Shown here piece after piece: positions 33,366-46,197 of a stretch of DNA of 64,000 bases. The stretch's first letter is position 1; every line of letters starts with the position of its first letter. The position numbers were made by a program, and so were the translations under genes. The notes beneath the pieces are model-generated. The model was not told the DNA's origin and ran no database searches. It saw nothing but the letters and a program-made list of their open reading frames with translations. The stretch comes from Gemmatimonadales bacterium (GTDB lineage: Bacteria; Gemmatimonadota; Gemmatimonadetes; Gemmatimonadales; GWC2-71-9): contig JBGSKF010000095.1 in assembly GCA_041741375.1 (NCBI GenBank), positions 41 through 64,040 of the forward strand, given 5' to 3'.

Positions 33366-33394
33366 AGCGACCGGAGGGAGGACAGCCAGGGTGG

Positions 33395-33958
33395 CTACTC
33401 GCCCCACACGGCACGGAAATATGCCGAGAGATCGATGCGGAGCGGAGAGACCGCATTTTCCGGCTGCCAGGCGAGTTCCTGATCGGCGATGGCGGGATGG
33501 TCCGCCCCGGGGGTCCAGACCTCCACCAGCCGGGCATCAAGATCCACGATCCAGTACGTCGGGACGCCAGTGCGTTGATAGAGCCGACGCTTGGTGACCC
33601 GGTCATGCCGTGCGGTAGAGGGAGACAACACCTCTGCGACCAGAAGCGGGATACCATACTCGTCCCATTCGCGGGGGGGCCGTCCCTCCACCATGCGACC
33701 CACAAAGAGATCGGGCTGGAGCATTTGGCCGGCGTGGAAGTCGAGGTCGGCGGGAGAGATGCAGAGGCCCCCGATCCGGTGTGCGCGGACATACGGAGCG
33801 ATCCGGAGCAGGAGCTCCACCACGCCGTACTGGTGGAGCGCGCGTGGGCTCGGGCTCACGAGGAGCTCGCCATCCACGAGCTCGTAGCGGTTTCCGTCGT
33901 CGGGGAGGGCGAGCACCTCCTCCCGAGTCCAGTGGCGGGCCACAGCAGGCATGCCCAT
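33395..33958 (-). CDS. Uma2-family (DUF820) putative endonuclease, tandem copy 1
   Basis: MGMPAVARHWTREEVLALPDDGNRYELVDGELLVSPSP...QPDLFV...PLLVAEVLSPSTARHDRVTKRRLYQRTGVPTYWIVD is the PD-(D/E)xK Uma2 pattern. Confidence 0.85.
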   Translation of the reverse strand: MGMPAVARHWTREEVLALPDDGNRYELVDGELLVSPSPRALHQYGVVELLLRIAPYVRAHRIGGLCISPADLDFHAGQMLQPDLFVGRMVEGRPPREWDEYGIPLLVAEVLSPSTARHDRVTKRRLYQRTGVPTYWIVDLDARLVEVWTPGADHPAIADQELAWQPENAVSPLRIDLSAYFRAVWGE

Positions 33959-34056
33959 ACGTTACGCTCGGCGAAAGTGGGGAGGCAAGGGGGCGGCATG
34001 ATCCCAACCTCGCCACCCTTCCCCCGGGCCCGACAACCCGAAAGATGCGGGCCGGA

Positions 34057-34631
34057 TCAATCGATCGGGGTATCCCCCAGGATCCTTCCGAACAGCTCAG
34101 GCAGGTCAATCTGGAGCGGTGTGATGGCGGGCTCCGGATGCCAGACGAGGAAATCCTCGGCGATGACAGGTCGGTCGGCCCCGGGGGTCCAGACCTCCAC
34201 CAGCCGGGCATCGAGGTCCACAATCCAGTAGGTCGGGACCCCGGTGCGTTGATAGAGCCGACGCTTGGTGACCCGGTCATGCCGTGCGGTAGAGGGAGAC
34301 AACACCTCTGCGACCAGAAGCGGGATACCATACTCGTCCCATTCGCGAGGGGGCCGTCCCTCCACCATGCGACCCACAAAGAGATCGGGCTGGAGCAGTT
34401 GTCCAGGTGGAAGTCGAGGTCGGCGGGAGCGATACACAGGTCCCCGATCCGGTGGACGCGGACATACGGAGCGATCCGGAGCAGGAGCTCCACCACCCCG
34501 CGCTGGTGAAGCGGCCGCGGGCTCGGGCTCACGAGGAGCTCTCCGTCCACGAGCTCGTAGCGGTTTCCGTCGTCGGGGAGGGCGAGCACCTCCTCGCGGG
34601 TCCAGTGGCGGGCCACGGCAGGCATACCCAT
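34057..34631 (-). pseudogene. Uma2-family endonuclease, tandem copy 2, 1-nt deletion frameshift near 34400-34410
   Basis: The N-terminal 75 codons are in one frame (to ...PADLDFH) and the rest (QLLQPDLFVGRMVEGRPPREWDEYGIPLLVAEVLSPS...GDTPID*) is in another. Copy 1 has TTTGGCCGGCGTGG where copy 2 has GTTGTCCAGGTGG. Confidence 0.75.
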
Positions 34632-34729
34632 ACGTTACGCTCGGCGAGTGAGAGGAGGCAAGGGGGCGGCATGTCCCCGAACTTCGCCCTCCCTCGCGGG
34701 GACGGATAACCCCAACGACGCGGGCCGGA

Positions 34730-35305
34730 TCAGTCGATCGGGGGGTCTCCCCAGATCCGCCGGAACAGCGCGGGCAGGTCAATCTCCAGCGGCGTGACTG
34801 CAGGCTCGGGACGCCAGACCAGGATGCCCTCAGCGATGACGGGCCGACTGGACCCGGGGGTCCAGACCTCCACCAGCCGGGCATCGAGGTCCACGACCCA
34901 GTACGTCGGGACGCCGGAGCGTTGATAGAGCCGTCTTTTGGTGACCCGGTCATACCGGGCCGTGGAGGGGGAGAGGACCTCGACCACCAGAAGGGGAATG
35001 TGCACATCCGACCATTCCCTGAGCGGAGTGCCCTCCCGTCGCGTCACCACGAACAGATCGGGTTGCACCAGGTGTCCAGCGTCCAGGTCAAGGTCCGCAG
35101 GGGAGAACAGCACCTCGCCCAGTCGATGTACCGCCAGCCATGACCCAATCAGCAGGTGGAACTGACCCACAACCCTCTGATGGGACCATCGTGGGGCCGG
35201 GCTCACCAGGAGCTCGCCGTCCACGAGTTCGTAGCGGTTTCCGTCGTCGGGGAGGGCGAGCACCTCCTCGCGGGTCCAGTGGCGGGCCACGGCAGGCATA
35301 CCCAT
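34730..35305 (-). CDS. Uma2-family endonuclease, tandem copy 3
   Basis: Same first 36 residues as copies 1-2, a divergent middle (RWSHQRVVGQFHLLIGSWLAVHRLGEVLFSP), and conserved LLVVEVLSPSTARYDRVTKRRLYQRSGVPTYWVVD. Confidence 0.85.
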   Translation of the reverse strand: MGMPAVARHWTREEVLALPDDGNRYELVDGELLVSPAPRWSHQRVVGQFHLLIGSWLAVHRLGEVLFSPADLDLDAGHLVQPDLFVVTRREGTPLREWSDVHIPLLVVEVLSPSTARYDRVTKRRLYQRSGVPTYWVVDLDARLVEVWTPGSSRPVIAEGILVWRPEPAVTPLEIDLPALFRRIWGDPPID

Positions 35306-35530
35306 ACGTTACGCTCGGCGAGTGAGAGGAGGCAAGGAGGCGGCATGTCCCCAACCTCGCCACCCTTCCCCAGGGCCCGATAACCCGGAAGATGCGGGCC
35401 GGATCAATCGATCGGGGTCCTGGGGTCAGTCCCACCCACCGGAGAGGGTGGCGCGCTCCCCCTGTCTCCCACATTCTTCTGTCCCGGACACCCATGTCCC
35501 GCTCACCAACCAGAGAACCCGGCAGCCCGC

Positions 35531-37615
35531 ATGGTCACATTTCCACCCCACCCCATCTACAGCGACACCGACGCCGAGGCCATGCTCTCCCGGTGGTCAC
35601 CCCGATGGGGCGAGGACCTGGTTCTACGGGTCTACACCTCACGACTCCTGGGTGGTGACCCTTCCCTGGTGCTCCATGGCGGCGGCAACACGTCCGTCAA
35701 GACCGTCGTGCGGGACCTGGCGGGGGAACCGGTCGACGTGTTGTACGTCAAGGGCAGCGGGTCGGACCTGTCGGCCATCGGCCCCGAGGGCTTTCCGGCC
35801 TGCCGTCTCGGTCCCCTCCTCCGGTATTGCCAGCTTTCCTCCCTGACCGACGAGGAGATGGTGGCGGGCCTGAGGAGCCAGATGCTCGACCCGGGAAGCC
35901 CGACCCCCAGTGTCGAGGCCCTGCTGCACGCGCTCCTCCCCGGCCGGTTCGTCGACCACACGCACGCGGATGCGGTCCTGGCGGTGCAGGATCAACCGAA
36001 CGCCCGGGACCTGGCGGAGGAGATCTGGGGGCCGTCCTTTCTCTTCATCCCCTACGTCATGCCCGGCTTCGTACTGGCGCGGCGCGTGGCGGACCTCGCC
36101 TCATCCTTCGACGGGATCCAGGGACTGATTCTGGAGCAACATGGGATCTTCACGTGGGGTAGCACCGCGCGCGAGAGCTACGAGCGGATGCTCGCGGGAG
36201 TCGTGGCCGCGGAGAAATGGCGCGCTGCTTCGCGTCCCCCCACGGTCATGCCGACCACCACCGCCCCCGATCCTGCGGCACGACACGCGACCCAACGGCA
36301 TCTTGCCCTCCTGGTCCGGGGAGTGCTGGCCGCCCATGCCCAGGGAAGGCATTTCATCACGTCATGGCGGGATGACCCTGCGATCCTGGCTCTGACCGGT
36401 CGACCGGATGGCCCGGACCTTACGGCGCGAGGCACCGTCACTCCGGACCATGTGATCCGCACCAAGCCTCGCCCCCTCTGGCTTCCTCCCCCCGAGGGCG
36501 GCACCGCATACCCTCGGAACCTCGTCGAGCAGGCCGTGGCCGGGTATGCCGATTGGTATGGGGAGTACTTTGCCCGCGGCGTGTCGCGGGCAGGACGCCC
36601 GCTCACGGCGCTCGATCCCCTTCCGCGAGTGATTCTGGTGCCCGGGCTCGGCGCCCTGACCGTCGGGCGCACGATCACCGATGCCGTGGTGGCCGGAGAC
36701 ATCGTCGCCCGCGCGGCCGCCGTGGTGCAGGAGGCCGAGACCGTCGGGCGCTATCGCCCGGTGAGTGAGGCCGACCTCTTCGACGTGGAATACTGGAGTC
36801 TGGAACAGGCCAAGCTGGCCCGGGGAGGACGCGAGGGACCGTTGGCGGGACGCATCGCCCTGGTGACGGGTGCCGCCGGCGGAATCGGACGTGCGACCGC
36901 TCTGCACCTCCTCGACCTCGGGGCCCACGTGCTGCTGACCGACAGGGACCCGGCCCCGCTGTCGGACACGGCGGACGCGCTCCGAGGCCGGCATGGTCGC
37001 CGAGTGTCCACAGCACCGTGCGACGTCACCGATACCGGCTCCGTGTCCCGTGCCGTGGAGATCGCGATCGAGACCTTCGGCGGAGTGGACCTCCTCGTCT
37101 CCAATGCGGGGACTGCTCCCTCCGGGTTGCTCCACACGCCACCGGGGGAGACGGCGCTCGAACACTCGCTGGACATCAATCTCCTGGGCCACCAACGGGT
37201 GGCGCATGCCGTGGCTCGTGTGCTGCTCGCCCAGGGGTGCGGAGGCTGCCTCCTCTTCAACGCGTCGAAGAGTGCCGTCAACCCTGGTCCCGAGTTCGGG
37301 CCCTATGCGATTCCGAAGGCGGGAGTGCTGGCCCTCATGCGGCAATATGCGGTTGATCTGGGGTCCCATGGAATCCGATCCAACGCCGTCAACGCCGATC
37401 GGATCCGGACCGGTCTCTTTGGAGACGGGGTGCTCGAGGCGCGGGCCCGGGCTCGGGGCGTGTCCCCCGAGGACTACTTCCAGCAGAATCTCCTCCGCCG
37501 CGAGACCACCGCGCGCGATGTGGCCGAGGCGTTTGGATGGCTTGCCACGGCGGAGGCCACGACGGGGTGTTTTGTGACGGTGGACGGGGGCAACGCGGCG
37601 GCCTTTCCGCGGTGA
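35531..37615 (+). CDS. Bifunctional class II aldolase / short-chain dehydrogenase (rhamnulose-1-phosphate aldolase/SDR-like)
   Basis: N-terminal HGGGNTSVK...VKGSGSDL (aldolase-type). C-terminal TGAAGGIGRATA (Rossmann), NASKSA...YAIPKA (SDR S...YxxxK). 694 aa. Confidence 0.88.
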   Translation: MVTFPPHPIYSDTDAEAMLSRWSPRWGEDLVLRVYTSRLLGGDPSLVLHGGGNTSVKTVVRDLAGEPVDVLYVKGSGSDLSAIGPEGFPACRLGPLLRYCQLSSLTDEEMVAGLRSQMLDPGSPTPSVEALLHALLPGRFVDHTHADAVLAVQDQPNARDLAEEIWGPSFLFIPYVMPGFVLARRVADLASSFDGIQGLILEQHGIFTWGSTARESYERMLAGVVAAEKWRAASRPPTVMPTTTAPDPAARHATQRHLALLVRGVLAAHAQGRHFITSWRDDPAILALTGRPDGPDLTARGTVTPDHVIRTKPRPLWLPPPEGGTAYPRNLVEQAVAGYADWYGEYFARGVSRAGRPLTALDPLPRVILVPGLGALTVGRTITDAVVAGDIVARAAAVVQEAETVGRYRPVSEADLFDVEYWSLEQAKLARGGREGPLAGRIALVTGAAGGIGRATALHLLDLGAHVLLTDRDPAPLSDTADALRGRHGRRVSTAPCDVTDTGSVSRAVEIAIETFGGVDLLVSNAGTAPSGLLHTPPGETALEHSLDINLLGHQRVAHAVARVLLAQGCGGCLLFNASKSAVNPGPEFGPYAIPKAGVLALMRQYAVDLGSHGIRSNAVNADRIRTGLFGDGVLEARARARGVSPEDYFQQNLLRRETTARDVAEAFGWLATAEATTGCFVTVDGGNAAAFPR

Positions 37616-38444: not shown

Positions 38445-39764
38445 TCAGTCTTCGGTCGGGCGCCGACGGAGACGGTAGATCACCGCACCGATCACCAGCG
38501 CGATCCCTCCCGCCACCAGGTTGTCCCCGGTGGTGCTCAACAGAAAGGTGAGACTGACCAGGAGGGCGGCCACCGGGATGGTGGGGCCGCCGGGAAGTCG
38601 CAGAGCCCCCGGGCGGTGCCCGAATCGCTTCCGCAGGACCGGCACCGCCGCGGCGGTCCCGATATAGGTGGTGAGCCGGGCGATGATGGAGAGCATGGCG
38701 AGTTGAACGAAGGAGCCGGACAGGGCCAGGGCCAGGGCGATTCCGGTCTGGGCAATGATGGCGTTGGCCGGCGTGCGATAGCGCGGATGCACGGAGGCGA
38801 AGAGCCGGGGCCCATATCCGTCGGTGGCCAGAGCGAAGAGATACCGCGGACCGATCAGGATGGTGTTGCTGATGTTGCCCAGGATGGAGATCACCGCCCC
38901 CACCGTGAGGAAGAGCGCGGCCCAGCTCCCGGCAAACTGCCCTGCCGACTCGGCGAGGGGCGAGGGGGACTCCGCCAGACCCGGCAACGTGCCGAGCGCC
39001 ACCACCTGCACCAGGGTGTAGAGCACCGTGATGATGACAATCATCGTGAGCATGGCGAACGGCACGTCCCGCCGGGGGTTCCGGTATTCACCCGCCGCTG
39101 CGGGGGCGTTCTCGAAGCCGGCATAGGCGAAGAGCAGGAGGAGTGCTGCCTCGCCAAGGACTCCGGGCCGGGGAGCCTCCACAGCCGTGACCAGCGACCA
39201 ATCGACGAAGAAGAGCCCCACCACGACGAAGAACACCAGGGGGACCATCTTGATGACCACCAGGGCCACCGCGGTGCGAGCCCCGGAGCGGACCCCCACC
39301 ACGTTGATCCACGCCAGCAGCGCCAGCGACCCTGTGATCAGGACGACCCGGAGGATCCCCTCATCCGCGGCGGGCCAGAGAAAGGCGAGCGCCAGTGAGA
39401 ATCCGTTGGCCAGGGACGCCACCGATGCGATGCGCGCCAGCCAGGTCATCCACCCGACTTCGAATCCGACGAACGCCCCGAACGCCTCGCGGGTGTAGAG
39501 GTACGCCCCCCCCGGCTGGTCGAAGTGGCTGGCAACCTCGGCGAAACAGAGCACCAGAAGCGCCACAGCGAGGCCGGCCAGGATGACCGCCCAGGTGCTC
39601 GCGGCGCCCAGAAGCAACGCGGCGGCGGCGGGCAGGAGATAGACGCCGCTCCCGATCACGTCGTTGATCGAGAGCCCCACGAGCTGCCGTCGGGACACGG
39701 CCCTGATCAATTGGGGTGGCGATGCCCCCGGATCTGCATTCGTCTGGTCCATTCCCGGATTCAC
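38445..39764 (-). CDS. APC-superfamily amino acid permease
   Basis: 12 hydrophobic segments. N-terminal LVGLSINDVIGSGVYLLPAAAA (the G-S-G motif of APC TM1). Confidence 0.85.
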   Translation of the reverse strand: MNPGMDQTNADPGASPPQLIRAVSRRQLVGLSINDVIGSGVYLLPAAAALLLGAASTWAVILAGLAVALLVLCFAEVASHFDQPGGAYLYTREAFGAFVGFEVGWMTWLARIASVASLANGFSLALAFLWPAADEGILRVVLITGSLALLAWINVVGVRSGARTAVALVVIKMVPLVFFVVVGLFFVDWSLVTAVEAPRPGVLGEAALLLLFAYAGFENAPAAAGEYRNPRRDVPFAMLTMIVIITVLYTLVQVVALGTLPGLAESPSPLAESAGQFAGSWAALFLTVGAVISILGNISNTILIGPRYLFALATDGYGPRLFASVHPRYRTPANAIIAQTGIALALALSGSFVQLAMLSIIARLTTYIGTAAAVPVLRKRFGHRPGALRLPGGPTIPVAALLVSLTFLLSTTGDNLVAGGIALVIGAVIYRLRRRPTED

Positions 39765-39868: not shown

Positions 39869-40354
39869 CTATTCGGCCCAGACGGCGCGGAAGTACCGGG
39901 GCAGGTCGATCACCAGGGGTGGTATCCCGATATCGGACTGCCAGAGAAGCCTGTGTTTCGTGGTCACAGGAGCGCGGTCCCCCGGACTCCAGACCTCGAC
40001 GCTTCTCAGGTCCAGGTCGATGATCCAGTACACCGGCACCCCTGCGCGCTGGTAGTACTGGCGTTTCGTCACCCGGTCATGATGCGCCGTGGAGGGGGAG
40101 AGGGAAAGATCGGGCTGCAGGAGTTGCCCGGACCGGAAATCGAGGTCAGCCGGGGAAAAACACACGCGGCCCATCCTGTGCGCACGTACATAGGGATCCA
40201 CGAGTCTGAAGAGTTCCGCAACCCCCGCCTGATGCGCACCCCGGGGGCTGGGACTCACCAGGAGTTTCCCGTCCACCAGTTCATAACGATTTCCATCCTC
40301 GGGAAGCGCGAGGACGGAATCACGGGTCCAGAATCCAGCCGCGGGCATGCCCAT
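39869..40354 (-). CDS. Uma2-family endonuclease paralog lacking the catalytic-core segment (probably inactive)
   Basis: MGMPAAGFWTRDSVLALPEDGNRYELVDGKLLVSPSP...LQPDLSLSPSTAHHDRVTK. About 26 residues (FVGR...PLLVAEV) present in copies 1-3 are absent. Confidence 0.7.
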   Translation of the reverse strand: MGMPAAGFWTRDSVLALPEDGNRYELVDGKLLVSPSPRGAHQAGVAELFRLVDPYVRAHRMGRVCFSPADLDFRSGQLLQPDLSLSPSTAHHDRVTKRQYYQRAGVPVYWIIDLDLRSVEVWSPGDRAPVTTKHRLLWQSDIGIPPLVIDLPRYFRAVWAE

Positions 40355-40465
40355 ACGCTACGCTCGGCAAACGGGGAAAGGCAAGGGGTCCCTTCACGAG
40401 ACGCTCACGTTCTCCTCATCAACGGGGGCCTATTCTACGGATTCCCCTACCCCCGGAGAAGAGGA

Positions 40466-41854
40466 ATGTCCCGCCGAAGCTGGGCTGAACCGTGGAAGAT
40501 CAAGATGGTGGAACCGATCCGACTCACGTCGCGGGAGGAACGGGAGCGAGCCATCGCGGAGGCGGGGTACAACACCTTTCTCCTCCGCTCCGAGGACGTC
40601 TACATCGACCTCCTGACCGACTCCGGCACAAGTGCCATGTCGGACCGCCAGTGGGCCGGGATGATGTTGGGGGACGAGGCCTACGCCGGGTCTCGCAACT
40701 ACTACCGGCTGGAAGAGGCGGTGCGCCGTCATTACGGATTCGAGCACCTGATCCCGACCCACCAGGGTCGCGGGGCTGAGCACCTTCTGTCCCGCATTCT
40801 GATCCATCCCGGGGACCACATCCCGGGGAACATGTATTTCACCACGACCCGGCTGCACCAGGAACTGGCAGGGGGAAGCTTCCACGACGTGATCATCGAC
40901 GAAGCGCACGACCCCCGGTCCGAGCACCCGTTCAAGGGCAACATCGACCTGGCAAAACTCGACCGGCTGGTGGCGACGGTCGGGGCCGATCGGATCCCCT
41001 ACGTATGCGTGGCAGCCACCGTCAACCTGGCAGGCGGACAGCCGATCAGCCTGGCCAATCTCCGGGAGGTTCGCGCCTGGGCCGCGGCACACGGCATCCG
41101 CATCATCCTCGACGCGACGCGGGCGGTGGAGAACGCGTGGTTTATCCAGCAGCGCGAGCCGGGGCAGTCGGGCCGCCTGGTTGCCGACATTCTGCTCGAT
41201 CTCTGCGCCTTGTCCGACGGGGCGACGATGTCGGGGAAGAAGGACAGTCTGGTGAACATCGGGGGATGGCTGGGGCTCCGGGATCCCGACCTGGCGGAAG
41301 AAGCGCGGAATCTGGTGGTGGTCTACGAGGGGCTCCACACCTATGGCGGACTGGCGGGACGGGACCTGGAGGCGATGGCGATCGGCATCGAGGAGTCGGT
41401 GCAGGAGGATCACATCCGGACCCGGATCGGACAGGTGCTCTATCTGGGGGAGAATCTGCGCGCAGCCGGCGTCCCCATCGTCCTTCCGATCGGGGGCCAC
41501 GCCGTGTTCCTCGACGCCGCGGCGATTCTGGACCATCTCCCCCGCGACCAGTTCCCGGCCCAGGCCCTCGCGGCGGCGCTCTATCTCGAATCGGGAATCC
41601 GGGCGATGGAACGGGGAGCAGTGTCGGCGGGACGGGATCCCGTCACCGGCGAGAACCGGTTCCCTCGACTGGAACTGGTCCGGCTCACGATTCCCCGGCG
41701 GGTATACACCCAGGCGCACATGGATGTGACCGCCGAGGCGGTGGAGGCGGTGATGGCGAAGCGGGGAGAGGTCCCGGGGCTTCGGTTCGTGTCGGAACCC
41801 AAGTATCTCCGGTTCTTCCAGGCCCGATTCGAGCCCCTCATCATGAACCACTGA
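40466..41854 (+). CDS. tpl: Beta-eliminating lyase, tyrosine phenol-lyase-like (TPL/tryptophanase family)
   Basis: ATG 40466 after GGAGAAGAGGA. AGYNTFLLRSEDVYIDLLTDSGTSAMSDRQWAGMMLGDEAYAGS, THQGRGAE, GNMYFTTTR, TVNLAGGQP, MSGKKD (PLP lysine), VVVYEGLHTYGGLAGRD. As I recall them, the motif variants are those of TPL rather than E. coli TnaA. Confidence 0.88.
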   Translation: MSRRSWAEPWKIKMVEPIRLTSREERERAIAEAGYNTFLLRSEDVYIDLLTDSGTSAMSDRQWAGMMLGDEAYAGSRNYYRLEEAVRRHYGFEHLIPTHQGRGAEHLLSRILIHPGDHIPGNMYFTTTRLHQELAGGSFHDVIIDEAHDPRSEHPFKGNIDLAKLDRLVATVGADRIPYVCVAATVNLAGGQPISLANLREVRAWAAAHGIRIILDATRAVENAWFIQQREPGQSGRLVADILLDLCALSDGATMSGKKDSLVNIGGWLGLRDPDLAEEARNLVVVYEGLHTYGGLAGRDLEAMAIGIEESVQEDHIRTRIGQVLYLGENLRAAGVPIVLPIGGHAVFLDAAAILDHLPRDQFPAQALAAALYLESGIRAMERGAVSAGRDPVTGENRFPRLELVRLTIPRRVYTQAHMDVTAEAVEAVMAKRGEVPGLRFVSEPKYLRFFQARFEPLIMNH

Positions 41855-41941
41855 GACCTTTCTTGCTTCACCCGACCCAAGTCGCGACATTGAATGTCAT
41901 CCAGCCGACATCTCGGGTGAGTCCTGCTCCGGAGGGTCCTC

Positions 41942-43945
41942 GTGGTTCGCGTCCTGGAAGTCCTGTCGAGCCTGGTGTACCTCCTGATTTTCCTCACGCT
42001 GGGCGTTCGAGCACAGACCCTCGGAGGCCTTGACATTCCTCGCCTGGGAGTCGTCCCTCCCCTGGTCGTCATCCCGGCGCTCACGATTCTGGCCCTCACG
42101 GTCGTGGGGGTCACGTGGCTCCGAGTCAAGCAACGTGCCCCCGGGGGACTCTTCACCACGCTCCTCGTTCTTCCCCTCCTGACGGGGGTCTTCGCGGGCG
42201 GGTGGGCAAATGGCCGGAGCGTCCTGCGAAACTTGAAAATGGAGGACGGTGACGAGGAGTTCTGGTTCACCCGCGCCATGTCCGAACAGGAAGCCCACGC
42301 GTTCGCCCTGAGACTCCTTGCCACGGCCCTCTCGGACCGGACGCAGAGTGGACACGTGCCGGTGTCCAGGGCAACCAGCTTGCAGGTCCCCGAAGACTGG
42401 CCCTTGCCGGAGGGATTCGGGTTTGCCCTCGTGCCCGAAGAGAAGGGAGCCCTTGCGCTCTGGTCACGGCACAACGAGCAGACCTGCCGGATCCTCCTCA
42501 CCCCGGACTGGCGGACGGCGGATCCTGATCGCGGATTCACCTGCGACCCTGCGGGCCCCGTCCCCACCTCCTGGGAACCCGTCGACCGCCGACCGGCCGT
42601 GGCGCCACTGATACCAGCACCCGTCGATTCCCCGTTCACCCCCTGGCCGCAGTATCGCCTCGATCCGTTGCGAACCGCCACAGTCAGGGACACCGCCGTC
42701 GACTCCACGGCGCCATTCTGGTACGCGACCATCGGCGGTCCCTCACGGGCATCAGTCAGTGTGTCGGGCCCCCTCGTCCTCATCGGCACCCATGGCACCG
42801 CAATGCTGGAGGCTCGCGACCGGCGGACCGGGCGCCTGGTGTGGCGGACCCGGGAGCCCAACTGGATTCACCAGGACGCCGTCACCGATGGTCGTCTGGT
42901 CTTCGTTGGGTTTGGAGACAACGACAAATCGTTCCAGGGAGTGGCCCCATCCGGAGTGGCCGCGCACGACCTCCGGACCGGGCAACGGATCTGGACCCGA
43001 TTCCTCGACAACTCCACCATGACCTCCCCCGTGGTGCTCGACTCCCTGGTGGTGTTCGGAACCTCCAAGGGCGACCTCACCGGCGCGGACAAGAACACCG
43101 GAGAGACTCGGTGGGAGCGGCATCTCCCGGGCAATCTCGTCATGGGTCCCCCGCTCCTCTCGGGCAACACCGTGATCGTCCCTCTTGATCCACGCGGCAT
43201 GTGTGCCCTGGATGGAAGAGACGGCACAGTGCACTGGTGCACCCGGCTCCCACCTCACGCCGGAGGCGTCGGGCACATCTCGCCCACGCTCCTCGGTGGC
43301 CAGGTGTACGGAAGCCTCAATTCATTCCCGCCGAGTCCGCTGGGGCTGGTGCAGGACTTCGGGATCGAGGCCCTGCCCCTGCTCTGGACCTGGGCCACCA
43401 CCGGGGAGAATCCGATCCCGGTGCACCAGAAGGTGTTCGCGATTTCCCTGGCCACCGGCTCGCTGCGCTGGGAATCAGATCTCGACGGGGGTGACTGTTG
43501 CGGGAGCCCGGGCCAGCAGGGCCACATGTCGGGAACTCCGGTCATCGTGCCGGAGGACAGCTCCCTCGTTGTGGTTTCGCCCTTCTCCGACCGAGTCTAC
43601 CGGTTGGACGAGGAGACCGGCGCCATCCTGGCCCGGAGCGGCCCGATCCCCGTTTTCCCGCGTGGCCCCGCCCTCGTGGTGGACACGACCGTCATCGCGG
43701 TCGATCGTCACGGGGTCATACATGTGCTGTCCGTGGACGACCTGCGGGAACGCTGCTCCCTCCCGACCGGAGAGCCCGCGGATCGCGCGGGACCTGCGCT
43801 CGCGGGTGGAGCGCTGCTTCACGCCGGCCGGGAGGGGGGGCTCTATTCCATTCCCGTGAGCGAGGTGCTGCGCTGCAATCCGACGCTTGCTGGTGGGATC
43901 ACGGAAAGGAAGCGTGGCGGGGGCGTTCCCTCGCCTCCCCGTTGA
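41942..43945 (+). CDS. Membrane-anchored PQQ-like (BamB-type) beta-propeller protein, uncharacterised family, paralog 1
   Basis: GTG start after GGAGGG. Three N-terminal hydrophobic helices. Repeats ARDRRTGRLVW, AHDLRTGQRIW, GADKNTGETRW, ALDGRDGTVHW, AISLATGSLRW. Vicinal Cys-Cys at 43496-43501. Confidence 0.75.
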   Translation: MVRVLEVLSSLVYLLIFLTLGVRAQTLGGLDIPRLGVVPPLVVIPALTILALTVVGVTWLRVKQRAPGGLFTTLLVLPLLTGVFAGGWANGRSVLRNLKMEDGDEEFWFTRAMSEQEAHAFALRLLATALSDRTQSGHVPVSRATSLQVPEDWPLPEGFGFALVPEEKGALALWSRHNEQTCRILLTPDWRTADPDRGFTCDPAGPVPTSWEPVDRRPAVAPLIPAPVDSPFTPWPQYRLDPLRTATVRDTAVDSTAPFWYATIGGPSRASVSVSGPLVLIGTHGTAMLEARDRRTGRLVWRTREPNWIHQDAVTDGRLVFVGFGDNDKSFQGVAPSGVAAHDLRTGQRIWTRFLDNSTMTSPVVLDSLVVFGTSKGDLTGADKNTGETRWERHLPGNLVMGPPLLSGNTVIVPLDPRGMCALDGRDGTVHWCTRLPPHAGGVGHISPTLLGGQVYGSLNSFPPSPLGLVQDFGIEALPLLWTWATTGENPIPVHQKVFAISLATGSLRWESDLDGGDCCGSPGQQGHMSGTPVIVPEDSSLVVVSPFSDRVYRLDEETGAILARSGPIPVFPRGPALVVDTTVIAVDRHGVIHVLSVDDLRERCSLPTGEPADRAGPALAGGALLHAGREGGLYSIPVSEVLRCNPTLAGGITERKRGGGVPSPPR

Positions 43946-44071
43946 CATCGGGTGGGGATCCATTGGTAGCCGCCCGTCGCGCACGTCAAAACGCTACTGG
44001 CCCTTCTGCCCGATCGGTTCGATATTGGCCCTTCGGTGCTTGACCCGATCCGACTGTTCCGGGAAAGCCAT

Positions 44072-46058
44072 ATGGTTCGCCTTCTGGAAGCGCTGTCGAG
44101 TCTTGCCCTTCTCATTGTCCTCCTCACGCTTGGTCGGCGGGCGCAACACACCGGATCGCTCCAGATCCCTGGCCTGGGACACCTACCCGCCACCCTGGTT
44201 TTTGTGGGGATCGGTATCGTGCTGCTTAGTGTGGCCGTGATTCTCTGGCATCGAATCCGGACCGGCGCGCGGTCACTCTGGACGACTCTGCTTCTTCTCC
44301 TCCCCCTTCTGCTCCTGCTCACCACCGTGGTACGGCAGATCGGCGGCGCGACCTTGAGCCGGATCCGGTCGGATGACGGCGCCCATGATTACTTTTACCG
44401 GGAACGGACTCTTGCAGAACGGGACGCTCACGCCTTCGTTCTGCGACTGCTCGCGTCCAGCCTTTCTGCCCGCGTGGATGGACGCACCGAAGTGCGCCCG
44501 ACTCCCGTGGTCGGAACTTGGTTCGTGCCCGAAGGGTTCCAGTTCCACATTGCCCCCCTGACCACGACCACGGCGCACCTGTTCAGTCGACGAAACGGCC
44601 TCATCTGCCGGGCCACCCTGAGTGAGGACTGGCGGCTCATGGGGAGTCAATACGGATTTACCTGTGTGGAAAGCGAATATGCCCCGCGCGGGCCATGGTC
44701 GGAGATCGAACTCATCCAGTCGATCCCTCTGCTGTCCAAGGCGGAGACGCACACTGTCTCGCCATGGCCTCAGTACCGGCGTGTGGGGACCAAGACCGGC
44801 AGTGTGGGATCGAGCGGGGCGTATGCCACGGCACCCTTCTGGTACACAACCATTCAGGGGCAGGCCCGGGCCACTCCAAGCCTCGTGAGCGATGTCGTGC
44901 TGATTGGAACGCATGGCAATGGCGTACTCGAGGCCCGGGACCGGAGAACTGGCCTGCTGCTCTGGCGGCAGCGTGAGCCGAATTGGATCCATCAGGATGC
45001 GGTGTCCGATGGCCGGACCGTCTATGTCGGGTTTGGCGACAATAACCGTTCCTTCAAGGGGGCCGCTCCGTCCGGTGTGGCGGCCCATGACCTTGAAACC
45101 GGAGAGCGACGCTGGGTACGGTTCGCCGACAACTCCGTCATGACCTCCCCGGTGCTCTGGCAGCATCTCGTGGTCTTCGGCGATGCGTCCGGAGCCGTGC
45201 AGGCCGTGAACACGATGGATGGCACGGTGGCCTGCCTGGGAGCACCAGCTTCCCGGCAACCACATCATGGGCCCCCCGGCGGTTGGAGGAGATACCGTCT
45301 TCATCCCTCTCGACCCCAGAGGGCTCTGTGCACTCGACGTGAAAACGGGATACAGGCACTGGTGCATCAAGCTCCCACCCAACGCGGCGCGGGTGGGTCA
45401 TGTGGCTCCCACCTTGACCGGCACTCAAGTCACGGGCAGCGCGACAATACACGTGGAGGATTCGGGGGAACTTCTGTTCGCATTCCGTCTCAGGGCTCTG
45501 CCTCTGCTGTGGTCGTGGTGGACGACGGGAACAAACCCCGTAGCTCCCCGCCAAGCTGTGTATTCCATCTCGAGAGCGAGCGGACGACTCACCTGGTGGC
45601 AGAAACTTGATGAGGGTACGTGCTGCGGACCGGGGAGGTCGGGCCACATGTCCGGCACCCCGGTCATCGTGCCGCACGACAGTTCCCTGGTCGTCGTCTC
45701 CCCCTACGCCGATCGGGTCTACCGCCTCGACGAGGACACCGGCGTCATTCTGGCGCGGAGCGAGCCGACCCCCGTTTTTCCGCGCGGCCCCGCCCTCGTC
45801 GTGGATTCGACTGTCATCGCGGCGGACCGGCAGGGGGTGATTCATGTCCTCGCGACGGATGATTTGCACGAGCGCTGCGCCATCCCGCTCGGTGAGCCGG
45901 TGGACCGGGCCGGCCCCACCCTGGCCGAGGGGGCCTTGCTCATCGCCGGACGGGAGGGGGGACTCTATTCCATCCCCTTGGCCGACGTGCTGCGCTGCAA
46001 CCCGACCCTGTCCAACCGCATCGCCCGGTTGAAGGAGACACCGGCCGAAGGTGGCTGA
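44072..46058 (+). pseudogene. Paralog 2 of the membrane PQQ-like propeller protein, frameshifted by a 4-bp tandem duplication
   Basis: Collinear with paralog 1 through ...AVNTMDGTVA (ORF 44036..45610), then continues in ORF 45219..46058 (WEHQLPGNHIMGPP...). CCTGCCTG at 45231-45238; removing one CCTG restores GTVAWEHQLPG (compare GETRWERHLPG). Confidence 0.7.
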
Positions 46059-46197
46059 TCCGCCCCAGATCGACGCCTGGGCGCCCGCGTTCGGAGCTCC
46101 ACACCTCTGGGAAACCGCCCGTTCCGTTTCCTGCCATTTTGGCACTTTTCTTGGGTACAGCCGTTGCTTGAAGGATCAACGGATGTGCTGCGGGTGG

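Follow-up and report, generated by a model that had tools for sequence, protein, structure and literature searches.

A tetrathionate-hydrolase/BamB-type propeller family of Gemmatimonadota with a novel membrane anchor and, in one clade, a vicinal Cys-Cys loop

A stretch of 64,000 nucleotides from a Gemmatimonadales genome (GCA_041741375.1, contig JBGSKF010000095.1, positions 41 to 64,040 of the forward strand), referred to here as the window, carries two tandem genes for a membrane-anchored propeller protein directly behind a gene for a tyrosine phenol-lyase. The locus raises the question of what these propellers do, and whether their place behind the lyase, or the pair of adjacent cysteines that both copies share, says anything about it. 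In the initial annotation the two features were joined into a speculative role in the periplasmic sensing or oxidation of the aromatic product of the lyase, by analogy with the alcohol and methanol dehydrogenases that use pyrroloquinoline quinone (PQQ). The protein proves to be a propeller of the tetrathionate hydrolase/BamB type that has a novel anchor and stalk, a His in place of an Asp in a shared motif, and a Cys-Cys loop that is specific to one clade. The propeller is tentatively regarded here as a candidate periplasmic, cofactor-free enzyme or binding module for anionic sulfur compounds (tetrathionate, another polythionate or thiosulfate), a reading that is preferred to the others without being held with confidence.

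The first paralog begins 87 nucleotides past the lyase stop codon at 41854, which is the spacing originally noted. A GGAGG lies six nucleotides before its GTG, and a consensus scan predicted no terminator between the two genes. The three N-terminal transmembrane helices described at the outset are found by both approaches: hydropathy gives hydrophobic segments at residues 1–25, 32–62 and 66–89, and the AlphaFold2 (AF2) model places helices at 2–27, 40–64 and 70–101. The N-terminus is predicted to lie inside and the C-terminal domains in the periplasm, because the basic loop RVKQRAP sits between the second and the third helix. A periplasmic location is also favoured by six Cys residues of the extracytoplasmic part that are conserved throughout the family (182, 201, 421, 433, 605 and 645), and from this conservation it is likely that they form three disulfide pairs. 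All conservation counts given here come from 87 aligned family sequences.

The anchor is followed by a domain that is termed the stalk. It had been described as a region of about 190 residues without a recognisable motif; the lack of a Pfam match is confirmed, whereas the size is closer to 140 residues (about 96–235). Its two Cys residues, C182 and C201, are invariant in 87/87 sequences. Folded alone by AF2, the domain reaches a predicted local distance difference test (pLDDT) score of 87, and its best Foldseek match in the PDB has an E-value of 0.8. A pilin-like fold was considered in view of the helix with four strands, the conserved Cys and the AQE.YR-like motifs of distant members, and was rejected (best pilin match E 1.6, template modelling (TM) score 0.3). 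The propeller itself, with its BamB/PQQ-type repeats, is not in doubt: both paralogs match PQQ_2 with an E-value of about 1e-32 (1.4e-32 for paralog 1). For paralog 1, the AF2 model, which was computed from 86 aligned family sequences, has a pLDDT of 92.3 and a predicted TM score of 0.92, and shows a helical insertion in blade 5 (residues 466–487).

How widespread is this architecture? Among 1.84 billion representatives searched with a profile, 182 proteins had E-values below 1e-30, of which about 85–100 are full-length (560–720 residues) with an end-to-end profile match, counted as clusters at 50% identity; the remainder are generic multi-repeat propellers. When one genome per GTDB species was scanned, 17 loci were found, and 17/17 belong to Gemmatimonadota. 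A search of a set of 5.8 billion proteins with a profile of the 86-sequence alignment, in which a word index limits the candidates, returned the same nine proteins again. The propeller family has thus so far been found in Gemmatimonadota only. The sources hold no curated family name for it, and the sole names are automatic 'BamB' labels of the Joint Genome Institute (JGI). As a name for the family members, this label is wrong. The score against the BamB model TIGR03300 is 72.5 bits, with a cutoff of 285, and that against NF008351 is 46 bits, with a cutoff of 423. It is true that BamB (YfgL) belongs to the same Pfam family, PQQ_2, has eight blades and ranks first when the PDB is searched with a sequence profile (E 8e-18). 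However, BamB is a lipoprotein with a lipobox Cys and consists of a propeller of about 380 residues only, while the window proteins have no lipoprotein signal, are some 300 residues longer, and carry three transmembrane helices and an extra domain of about 140 residues ahead of the propeller. The genes of the family, unlike that for BamB, are multi-copy and fast-diverging, and their conserved residues ring the channel mouth. No curated family covers the combination of propeller, anchor and stalk, and the original statement that the architecture has no described precedent stands.

The best structural relative is a different one. With the model of paralog 1, the best Foldseek matches are all 12 chains of the tetrathionate hydrolase of Acidithiobacillus ferrooxidans (E 8e-29 to 8e-26, top match 6l8a), which superpose with a TM score, normalised to the target, of 0.73–0.79 and a root mean square deviation (rmsd) of 3.4–4.2 Å. 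BamB ranks behind them, with E-values of 2e-23 or weaker and an rmsd of 5.5–10 Å. The sequence-profile search of the PDB also detects tetrathionate hydrolase (E 1.4e-14). This enzyme (Af-Tth/TetH; PDB 6L8A, 7CQY) is likewise an eight-bladed PQQ_2 propeller with insertions, and it works without a cofactor in acidophilic sulfur oxidisers. Unlike the window protein, which has a three-helix anchor and an extra domain and comes from a non-acidophile phylum, it is a soluble, secreted homodimer. It has a single, non-essential Cys, compared with six conserved Cys in the window family and, in addition, the Cys-Cys of the clade.

The likeness extends to the catalytic motif. In tetrathionate hydrolase, Asp325 lies at most 4 Å from the sulfur density, the D325N mutant is inactive, and the enzyme works at acid pH only (PMC10859504). 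HMMER aligned ...PPHAG-GVGHISPTLLGG of paralog 1 with ...GASNTGIGNVSPAAADG of the D325N mutant (7cqy). A comparison of the wild-type and D325N chains identified chain residue 296 as Asp325, at which the wild type reads GIGDVSP, and the residue of paralog 1 at this position is His445 in GVGHISP. Across the family, position 445 is His in 73/87 members (84%), among them paralog 2, and Asp in 6/87 (7%). The members with Asp (e.g., P0052, P0062, P0069 and P0070) read G-D-x-[ST]-P, and in some of them His528 is also replaced by Asn. As judged from these residues, they may form a subgroup with a chemistry nearer to that of tetrathionate hydrolase.

His445 is one of a set of conserved residues that also includes R239, R269, H284, N307, H310, M360, M401, H528, T532, R574, D614 and R615. 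The polar ones are all found either in B–C loops or immediately ahead of strand A, the innermost strand, in one blade after another. From propeller topology, the conserved residues would therefore lie on one face, around the mouth of the channel. An Arg- and His-rich site of this kind suits oxyanions. The pocket residues are retained in both window paralogs.

The neighbours of family genes in other Gemmatimonadota, which in most lineages include genes related to sulfur, provide the third line of evidence. A homolog of the thiosulfate dehydrogenase TsdA adjoins them at six distinct loci (the search was for tsdA only). It matches 4wq7 with an E-value of 2e-49, and one of its Cys residues aligns within the CFERSL motif of TsdA; this Cys is presumably a heme ligand. 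A protein of about 210 residues that carries a twin-arginine (Tat) export signal and has one invariant Cys, in LACRN, is adjacent at 11 loci, often with its gene overlapping those of the propellers. A SorA/SoxC-like molybdenum enzyme together with a cytochrome c adjoins the propeller genes in L032/33, and in L031 it adjoins the gene of the single-Cys partner alone. The set that recurs consists of TsdA, the SorA/SoxC-like enzyme with its cytochrome c, the single-Cys Tat protein and one to three propellers, and was seen at loci L032 (2683–12718), L031 (4910–8585), L007, L010, L011, L016 and L017.

Architecture, periplasmic orientation, fold, taxonomic range, gene neighbourhoods and the correspondence of motifs with tetrathionate hydrolase are established, whereas the following catalytic steps are inferred. 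TsdA would supply tetrathionate, and this or another polythionate or related sulfur oxyanion would be bound and cleaved in a pocket at the channel mouth that is lined by Arg239, Arg269, Arg574 and Arg615, His284, His310, His445 and His528, Asp614, and Met360 and Met401. His445 would act as the general acid in place of Asp325, and a His at the catalytic position could permit the same chemistry at neutral rather than acid pH. The sulfane sulfur would be accepted by the single-Cys Tat-exported partner, and the released sulfite would be oxidised by SorAB/SoxCD-like enzymes. In the clade of the window, the sulfur neighbours would have been lost and the Cys-Cys loop gained on the face of the pocket, with the pocket itself retained. 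It may be speculated that this loop stands in for the missing single-Cys partner.

A related arrangement has been described in Advenella, where ThdT, an XoxF-like propeller of the PQQ type, cleaves tetrathionate with a thiol as co-substrate, alongside TsdA and SorAB/SoxBCD, in neutrophiles (10.1101/708438). A PQQ-type propeller working with TsdA and SorAB parallels the proposed pathway. Tetrathionate hydrolase is the sole bacterial tetrathionate-oxidising enzyme that has been characterised at the molecular level, and it is restricted to acidophiles (10.1101/708438). For the processing of tetrathionate in neutrophiles that bear TsdA, the present family offers a testable candidate from a phylum that is widespread in soil and sediment. 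Metagenome-assembled genomes of Gemmatimonadetes contain unexplained orphan soxCD genes (PMC6704655). If the sulfur-compound reading is true, these genes would acquire a role, and the recurring gene set may explain them.

Several observations weigh against this reading. Identity to tetrathionate hydrolase is only about 16%, BamB outranks it among the sequence-profile matches in the PDB, and the catalytic Asp325 is replaced by His in the window proteins, although the remaining motif, G-x-G-[D/H]-[VI]-S-P, is shared. The clustering of the conserved residues in one pocket is deduced from strand topology. TsdA is adjacent at only about 6/20 loci, and genes for glycosyltransferases are at least as frequent. 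The 'DsrE/DsrF-like' label of the single-Cys partner comes from JGI names for some copies only, and it was not confirmed by searches of Pfam, NCBIfam and PDB sequences. In the 64-kb window itself, a homolog search found no sulfur gene (TsdA, SorA-like or single-Cys partner). Finally, the clade of the window is about 30% identical to the TsdA-linked members, and its substrate may differ.

Some of these points would fit a periplasmic enzyme or receptor for a ligand other than a sulfur compound; a different oxyanion, a metal and a sugar phosphate from the envelope are examples. The likeness to tetrathionate hydrolase and the adjacency of TsdA would then be incidental. The partner genes are indeed heterogeneous: besides the loci with TsdA, there is one with peptidases and an amidase (L034), and several have no partner gene at all. 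A metal could just as well be bound by the conserved His and Met residues, and the clade of the window has no sulfur-related neighbour of any kind. However, the motif match falls specifically on the catalytic residue of tetrathionate hydrolase, and the combination of TsdA, the SorAB-like enzyme and the single-Cys partner reappears in separate lineages. A non-sulfur ligand is therefore considered somewhat unlikely, though it is an alternative to be taken seriously.

The frequency of glycosyltransferase genes suggests another explanation, in which the propeller has no catalytic role and serves as a periplasmic scaffold for the assembly of envelope glycans, bridging the small partner and GT-C/GT4 enzymes in the manner of Rv3035 or BamB. 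Outside the lineage of the window, GT4, GT-C/PMT_2-like and NAD-epimerase genes are the usual neighbours, with UbiA seen once, and the gene of the small periplasmic partner is tightly coupled to those of the family. The rank of BamB as the best sequence-level match in the PDB agrees with this, and tandem, fast-diverging copies suit a surface or interaction module. The closest precedent is Rv3035 of Mycobacterium, a membrane-tethered, periplasmic, eight-bladed propeller with disulfides, which bridges the small partner FecB and AftB, an arabinofuranosyltransferase of the GT-C type; tetrathionate hydrolase is reported to be among the nearest structural homologs of Rv3035 (PMC13041763). In contrast to the window proteins, Rv3035 is a lipoprotein of ordinary size, and the listed top 50 Foldseek matches of paralog 1 do not include it. 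Nor was a glycosyltransferase or FecB-like gene found in the window; homologs of GT4, PMT_2-like and epimerase genes were all looked for there. In the annotated loci L006 and L007, the glycosyltransferase genes are divergent or convergent and not part of the same operon. What the family conserves most strongly is the ring of Arg, His, Asp and Met around the mouth of the channel, a pattern characteristic of propeller enzymes, and the catalytic motif of tetrathionate hydrolase is shared. This makes a scaffold function unlikely.

What, then, is to be made of the two features from which the locus first drew attention, the vicinal cysteines and the lyase? The motif D(G/E)G.CCG..G..GHMSGTPVIVP was correctly located in both copies. 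The Cys-Cys site is an insertion of 4–6 residues in the loop between blades 5 and 6, eight residues before the conserved GH528..GT532, and forms the block of lowest confidence in the AF2 model (pLDDT 66). The pair and its insertion are present in 7/87 sequences, namely the two window copies and P0002–P0006, all from the clade that is linked to the lyase, and are absent from 80/80 others. The Cys-Cys is a clade-specific acquisition and not a hallmark of the fold or the family, as the alignment makes clear. This is one of the outcomes that the initial annotation itself had named as counting against its interpretation. Within the clade, it is invariant despite a protein identity of 46–64%, which suggests that it is probably functional there.

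The analogy with the PQQ alcohol and methanol dehydrogenases fares no better. These enzymes also form eight-bladed propellers with Trp-docking repeats, and the Cys-Cys of the window clade lies on the active-site face. However, the dehydrogenase model TIGR03075 gives 22 bits, compared with a cutoff of 480, and aligns over a repeat of about 60 residues; only single repeats align, the Cys-Cys sits elsewhere in the fold, and it is missing in 92% of the window family. No ligands for PQQ or for Ca or a lanthanide were seen in the window family, for which no reliable residue-level alignment with quinoproteins was obtained.

A bolder version of the sulfur-compound reading concerns the window clade alone. 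Its members could be self-contained, thiol-dependent cleavers of polythionates or sulfane sulfur at neutral pH, with His445 in place of Asp325 and the Cys519-Cys520 loop as a sulfur acceptor within the protein. This is quite unlikely, and is mentioned for what it would imply. Enzymes of the beta-eliminating lyase family also release sulfide from cysteine. If the clade were such a self-contained cleaver, the position behind a lyase of this family could matter after all. On a wider view, the propeller family could be the missing tetrathionate processor of neutrophiles that have TsdA and orphan SoxCD/SorAB.

The gene upstream had been called a phenol-producing lyase, and it is indeed a tyrosine phenol-lyase, with 738.5 bits against TIGR02618 (cutoff 720.7). 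The score is just above the cutoff, and the substrate preference is uncertain. An APC-family amino-acid permease gene (38445–39764, − strand) is divergent from the lyase gene, and the two look like a module for the uptake and degradation of tyrosine.

In the window, L001/L009, L002–L005 and L008, all genes of the Cys-Cys clade have the phenol-lyase gene on one side and dnaK on the other. Synteny among these loci extends over more than 20 kb, and their flanks are 83–95% identical in DNA. The loci therefore represent one narrow, genus-level lineage of Gemmatimonadales and a single evolutionary event. At about 20 other loci with family members, the lyase was found at none. When JGI metagenome contigs were scanned for further clade members, two loci came up, neither of which belongs to the clade. 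Among close relatives, the copy number of the propeller gene is one, two or three, and the propellers are 46–64% identical between strains whose lyases are 94–96% identical. An obligate partnership with the lyase is doubtful because the copy number varies, the propellers diverge and one copy is broken; an array that is variable and in part broken does not fit a fixed enzymatic partner. The adjacency of the lyase is a lineage-specific juxtaposition and not evidence of a shared pathway. It should not serve to infer the function of the propeller, and the interest of the family rests on its likely link to tetrathionate metabolism at neutral pH and not on the lyase.

It is thus very improbable that the propeller oxidises or senses phenol released by the lyase in the manner of a quinoprotein, with the help of PQQ or a metal and with the Cys-Cys acting as in the methanol and alcohol dehydrogenases: the short gap on the same strand without a predicted terminator, the arrangement conserved in all clade members, the Cys-Cys on the pocket face in 7/7 clade sequences and the weak repeat-level matches speak for it, but the score against TIGR03075 is far below the cutoff, the Cys-Cys is confined to the clade, the linkage is one event in one lineage, the Arg/His-rich pocket suits anions over phenol, and the propellers vary in number, one of them being a pseudogene, next to a lyase that hardly changes.

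The variability of the array can be followed along the DNA. Compared with L001, the flanks are 92–95% identical, identity falls to about 67% from just past the lyase stop (41867), and it returns to 94.6% in the last 280 or so nucleotides of copy 2 (from 45780). Relative to L001 and L002, the array at 41868–45780 is a hypervariable mosaic island between strongly conserved genes. Within the protein, variability is greatest in the anchor and stalk, at a mean identity of 38%, compared with 63% for the propeller. This pattern suggests old paralogs that have been sorted by unequal recombination.

Of the two tandem paralogs of about 660 residues that were originally described, the first is intact and shares 53% identity with its neighbour, whereas the second is not a single open reading frame (ORF). 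It is split between frame 2 (44036/44072 to 45610) and frame 3 (45219 to 46058), and the ATG at 44072 agrees with the N-termini of homologs. Three-frame translation showed that the homology to paralog 1 swaps from frame 2 to frame 3 at about 45233, within GTG GCC TGCC TGG. From its sequence, GCCTGCCT at the frame switch looks like a tandem duplication of four nucleotides, and removal of 45233–45236 gives a protein of 672 residues that has the stated identity to paralog 1 over 639 residues. The sequence across the frameshift is 100% identical in three Logan assemblies from different runs (SRR28170468, SRR28170473 and SRR28170474). The frameshift thus exists in the population, and an assembly error in the window was rejected as its cause. 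A programmed frameshift was also rejected, as GCC TGC CTG G contains no slippery heptamer or +1 site. If it were separate, the downstream ORF would be without an export signal. Paralog 2 retains all residues that are invariant in the family, including those downstream of the frameshift. It is probably a recent pseudogene, because there is no slippery site and the invariant residues are still present. Three independent Logan contigs (L026, L027 and L028) end at the same base inside paralog 2, at about 45409, which is probably a break in the assembly graph caused by the similarity of the paralogs or by strain variation. The coordinates of all features are given in Table 1.

Table 1. Positions of the lyase gene, the two propeller paralogs and their parts in the window.
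Feature	Position	Strand	Basis or remark
Tyrosine phenol-lyase gene	40454..41854	+	TIGR02618 and PF01212
Paralog 1 (membrane-anchored periplasmic propeller gene)	41942..43945	+	Intact ORF, 667 residues, GTG start
Three-helix N-terminal membrane anchor, residues 1–95	41942..42226	+	Hydropathy and AF2
Stalk domain, residues ~96–235	42227..42646	+	One helix and four-stranded sheet; C182, C201
Eight-bladed propeller, residues ~236–645	42647..43876	+	DSSP strand pattern of AF2 model
His445 codon in GVGHISP	43274..43276	+	HMMER alignment to 7cqy; aligns with Asp325 (GIGDVSP)
Vicinal Cys519-Cys520, paralog 1	43496..43501	+	In D(G/E)G.CCG..G..GHMSGTPVIVP
Paralog 2, frameshifted	44072..46058	+	Two overlapping ORFs in different frames
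Four-nucleotide GCCT insertion, tandem duplication within GCCTGCCTGG	45233..45236	+	Sequence and three-frame translation
Vicinal Cys-Cys, paralog 2	45621..45626	+	Downstream of frameshift, in frame of ORF 45219..46058
Weak hairpin resembling a terminator, after paralog 2 and before dnaK	46132..46144	+	Consensus scan; site count below shuffle expectation

Several small genes for endonuclease-like proteins of the Uma2 family (PF05685) lie near the array, at 39869–40354 (− strand) and at about 33393–35417. For the copy at 39869–40354, between the permease and the lyase, PADLOC gives a match to the candidate defence family PDC-S03 (E 8e-18). The presence of a hypervariable array near Uma2 genes prompted the consideration of a role in a defence system, and this was rejected, as PADLOC gave no match for the propeller. 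Further upstream, at 35531–37615 (+ strand), a fusion of a class II aldolase and a short-chain dehydrogenase of 694 residues is encoded, which shows 83–92% amino acid identity in related genomes.

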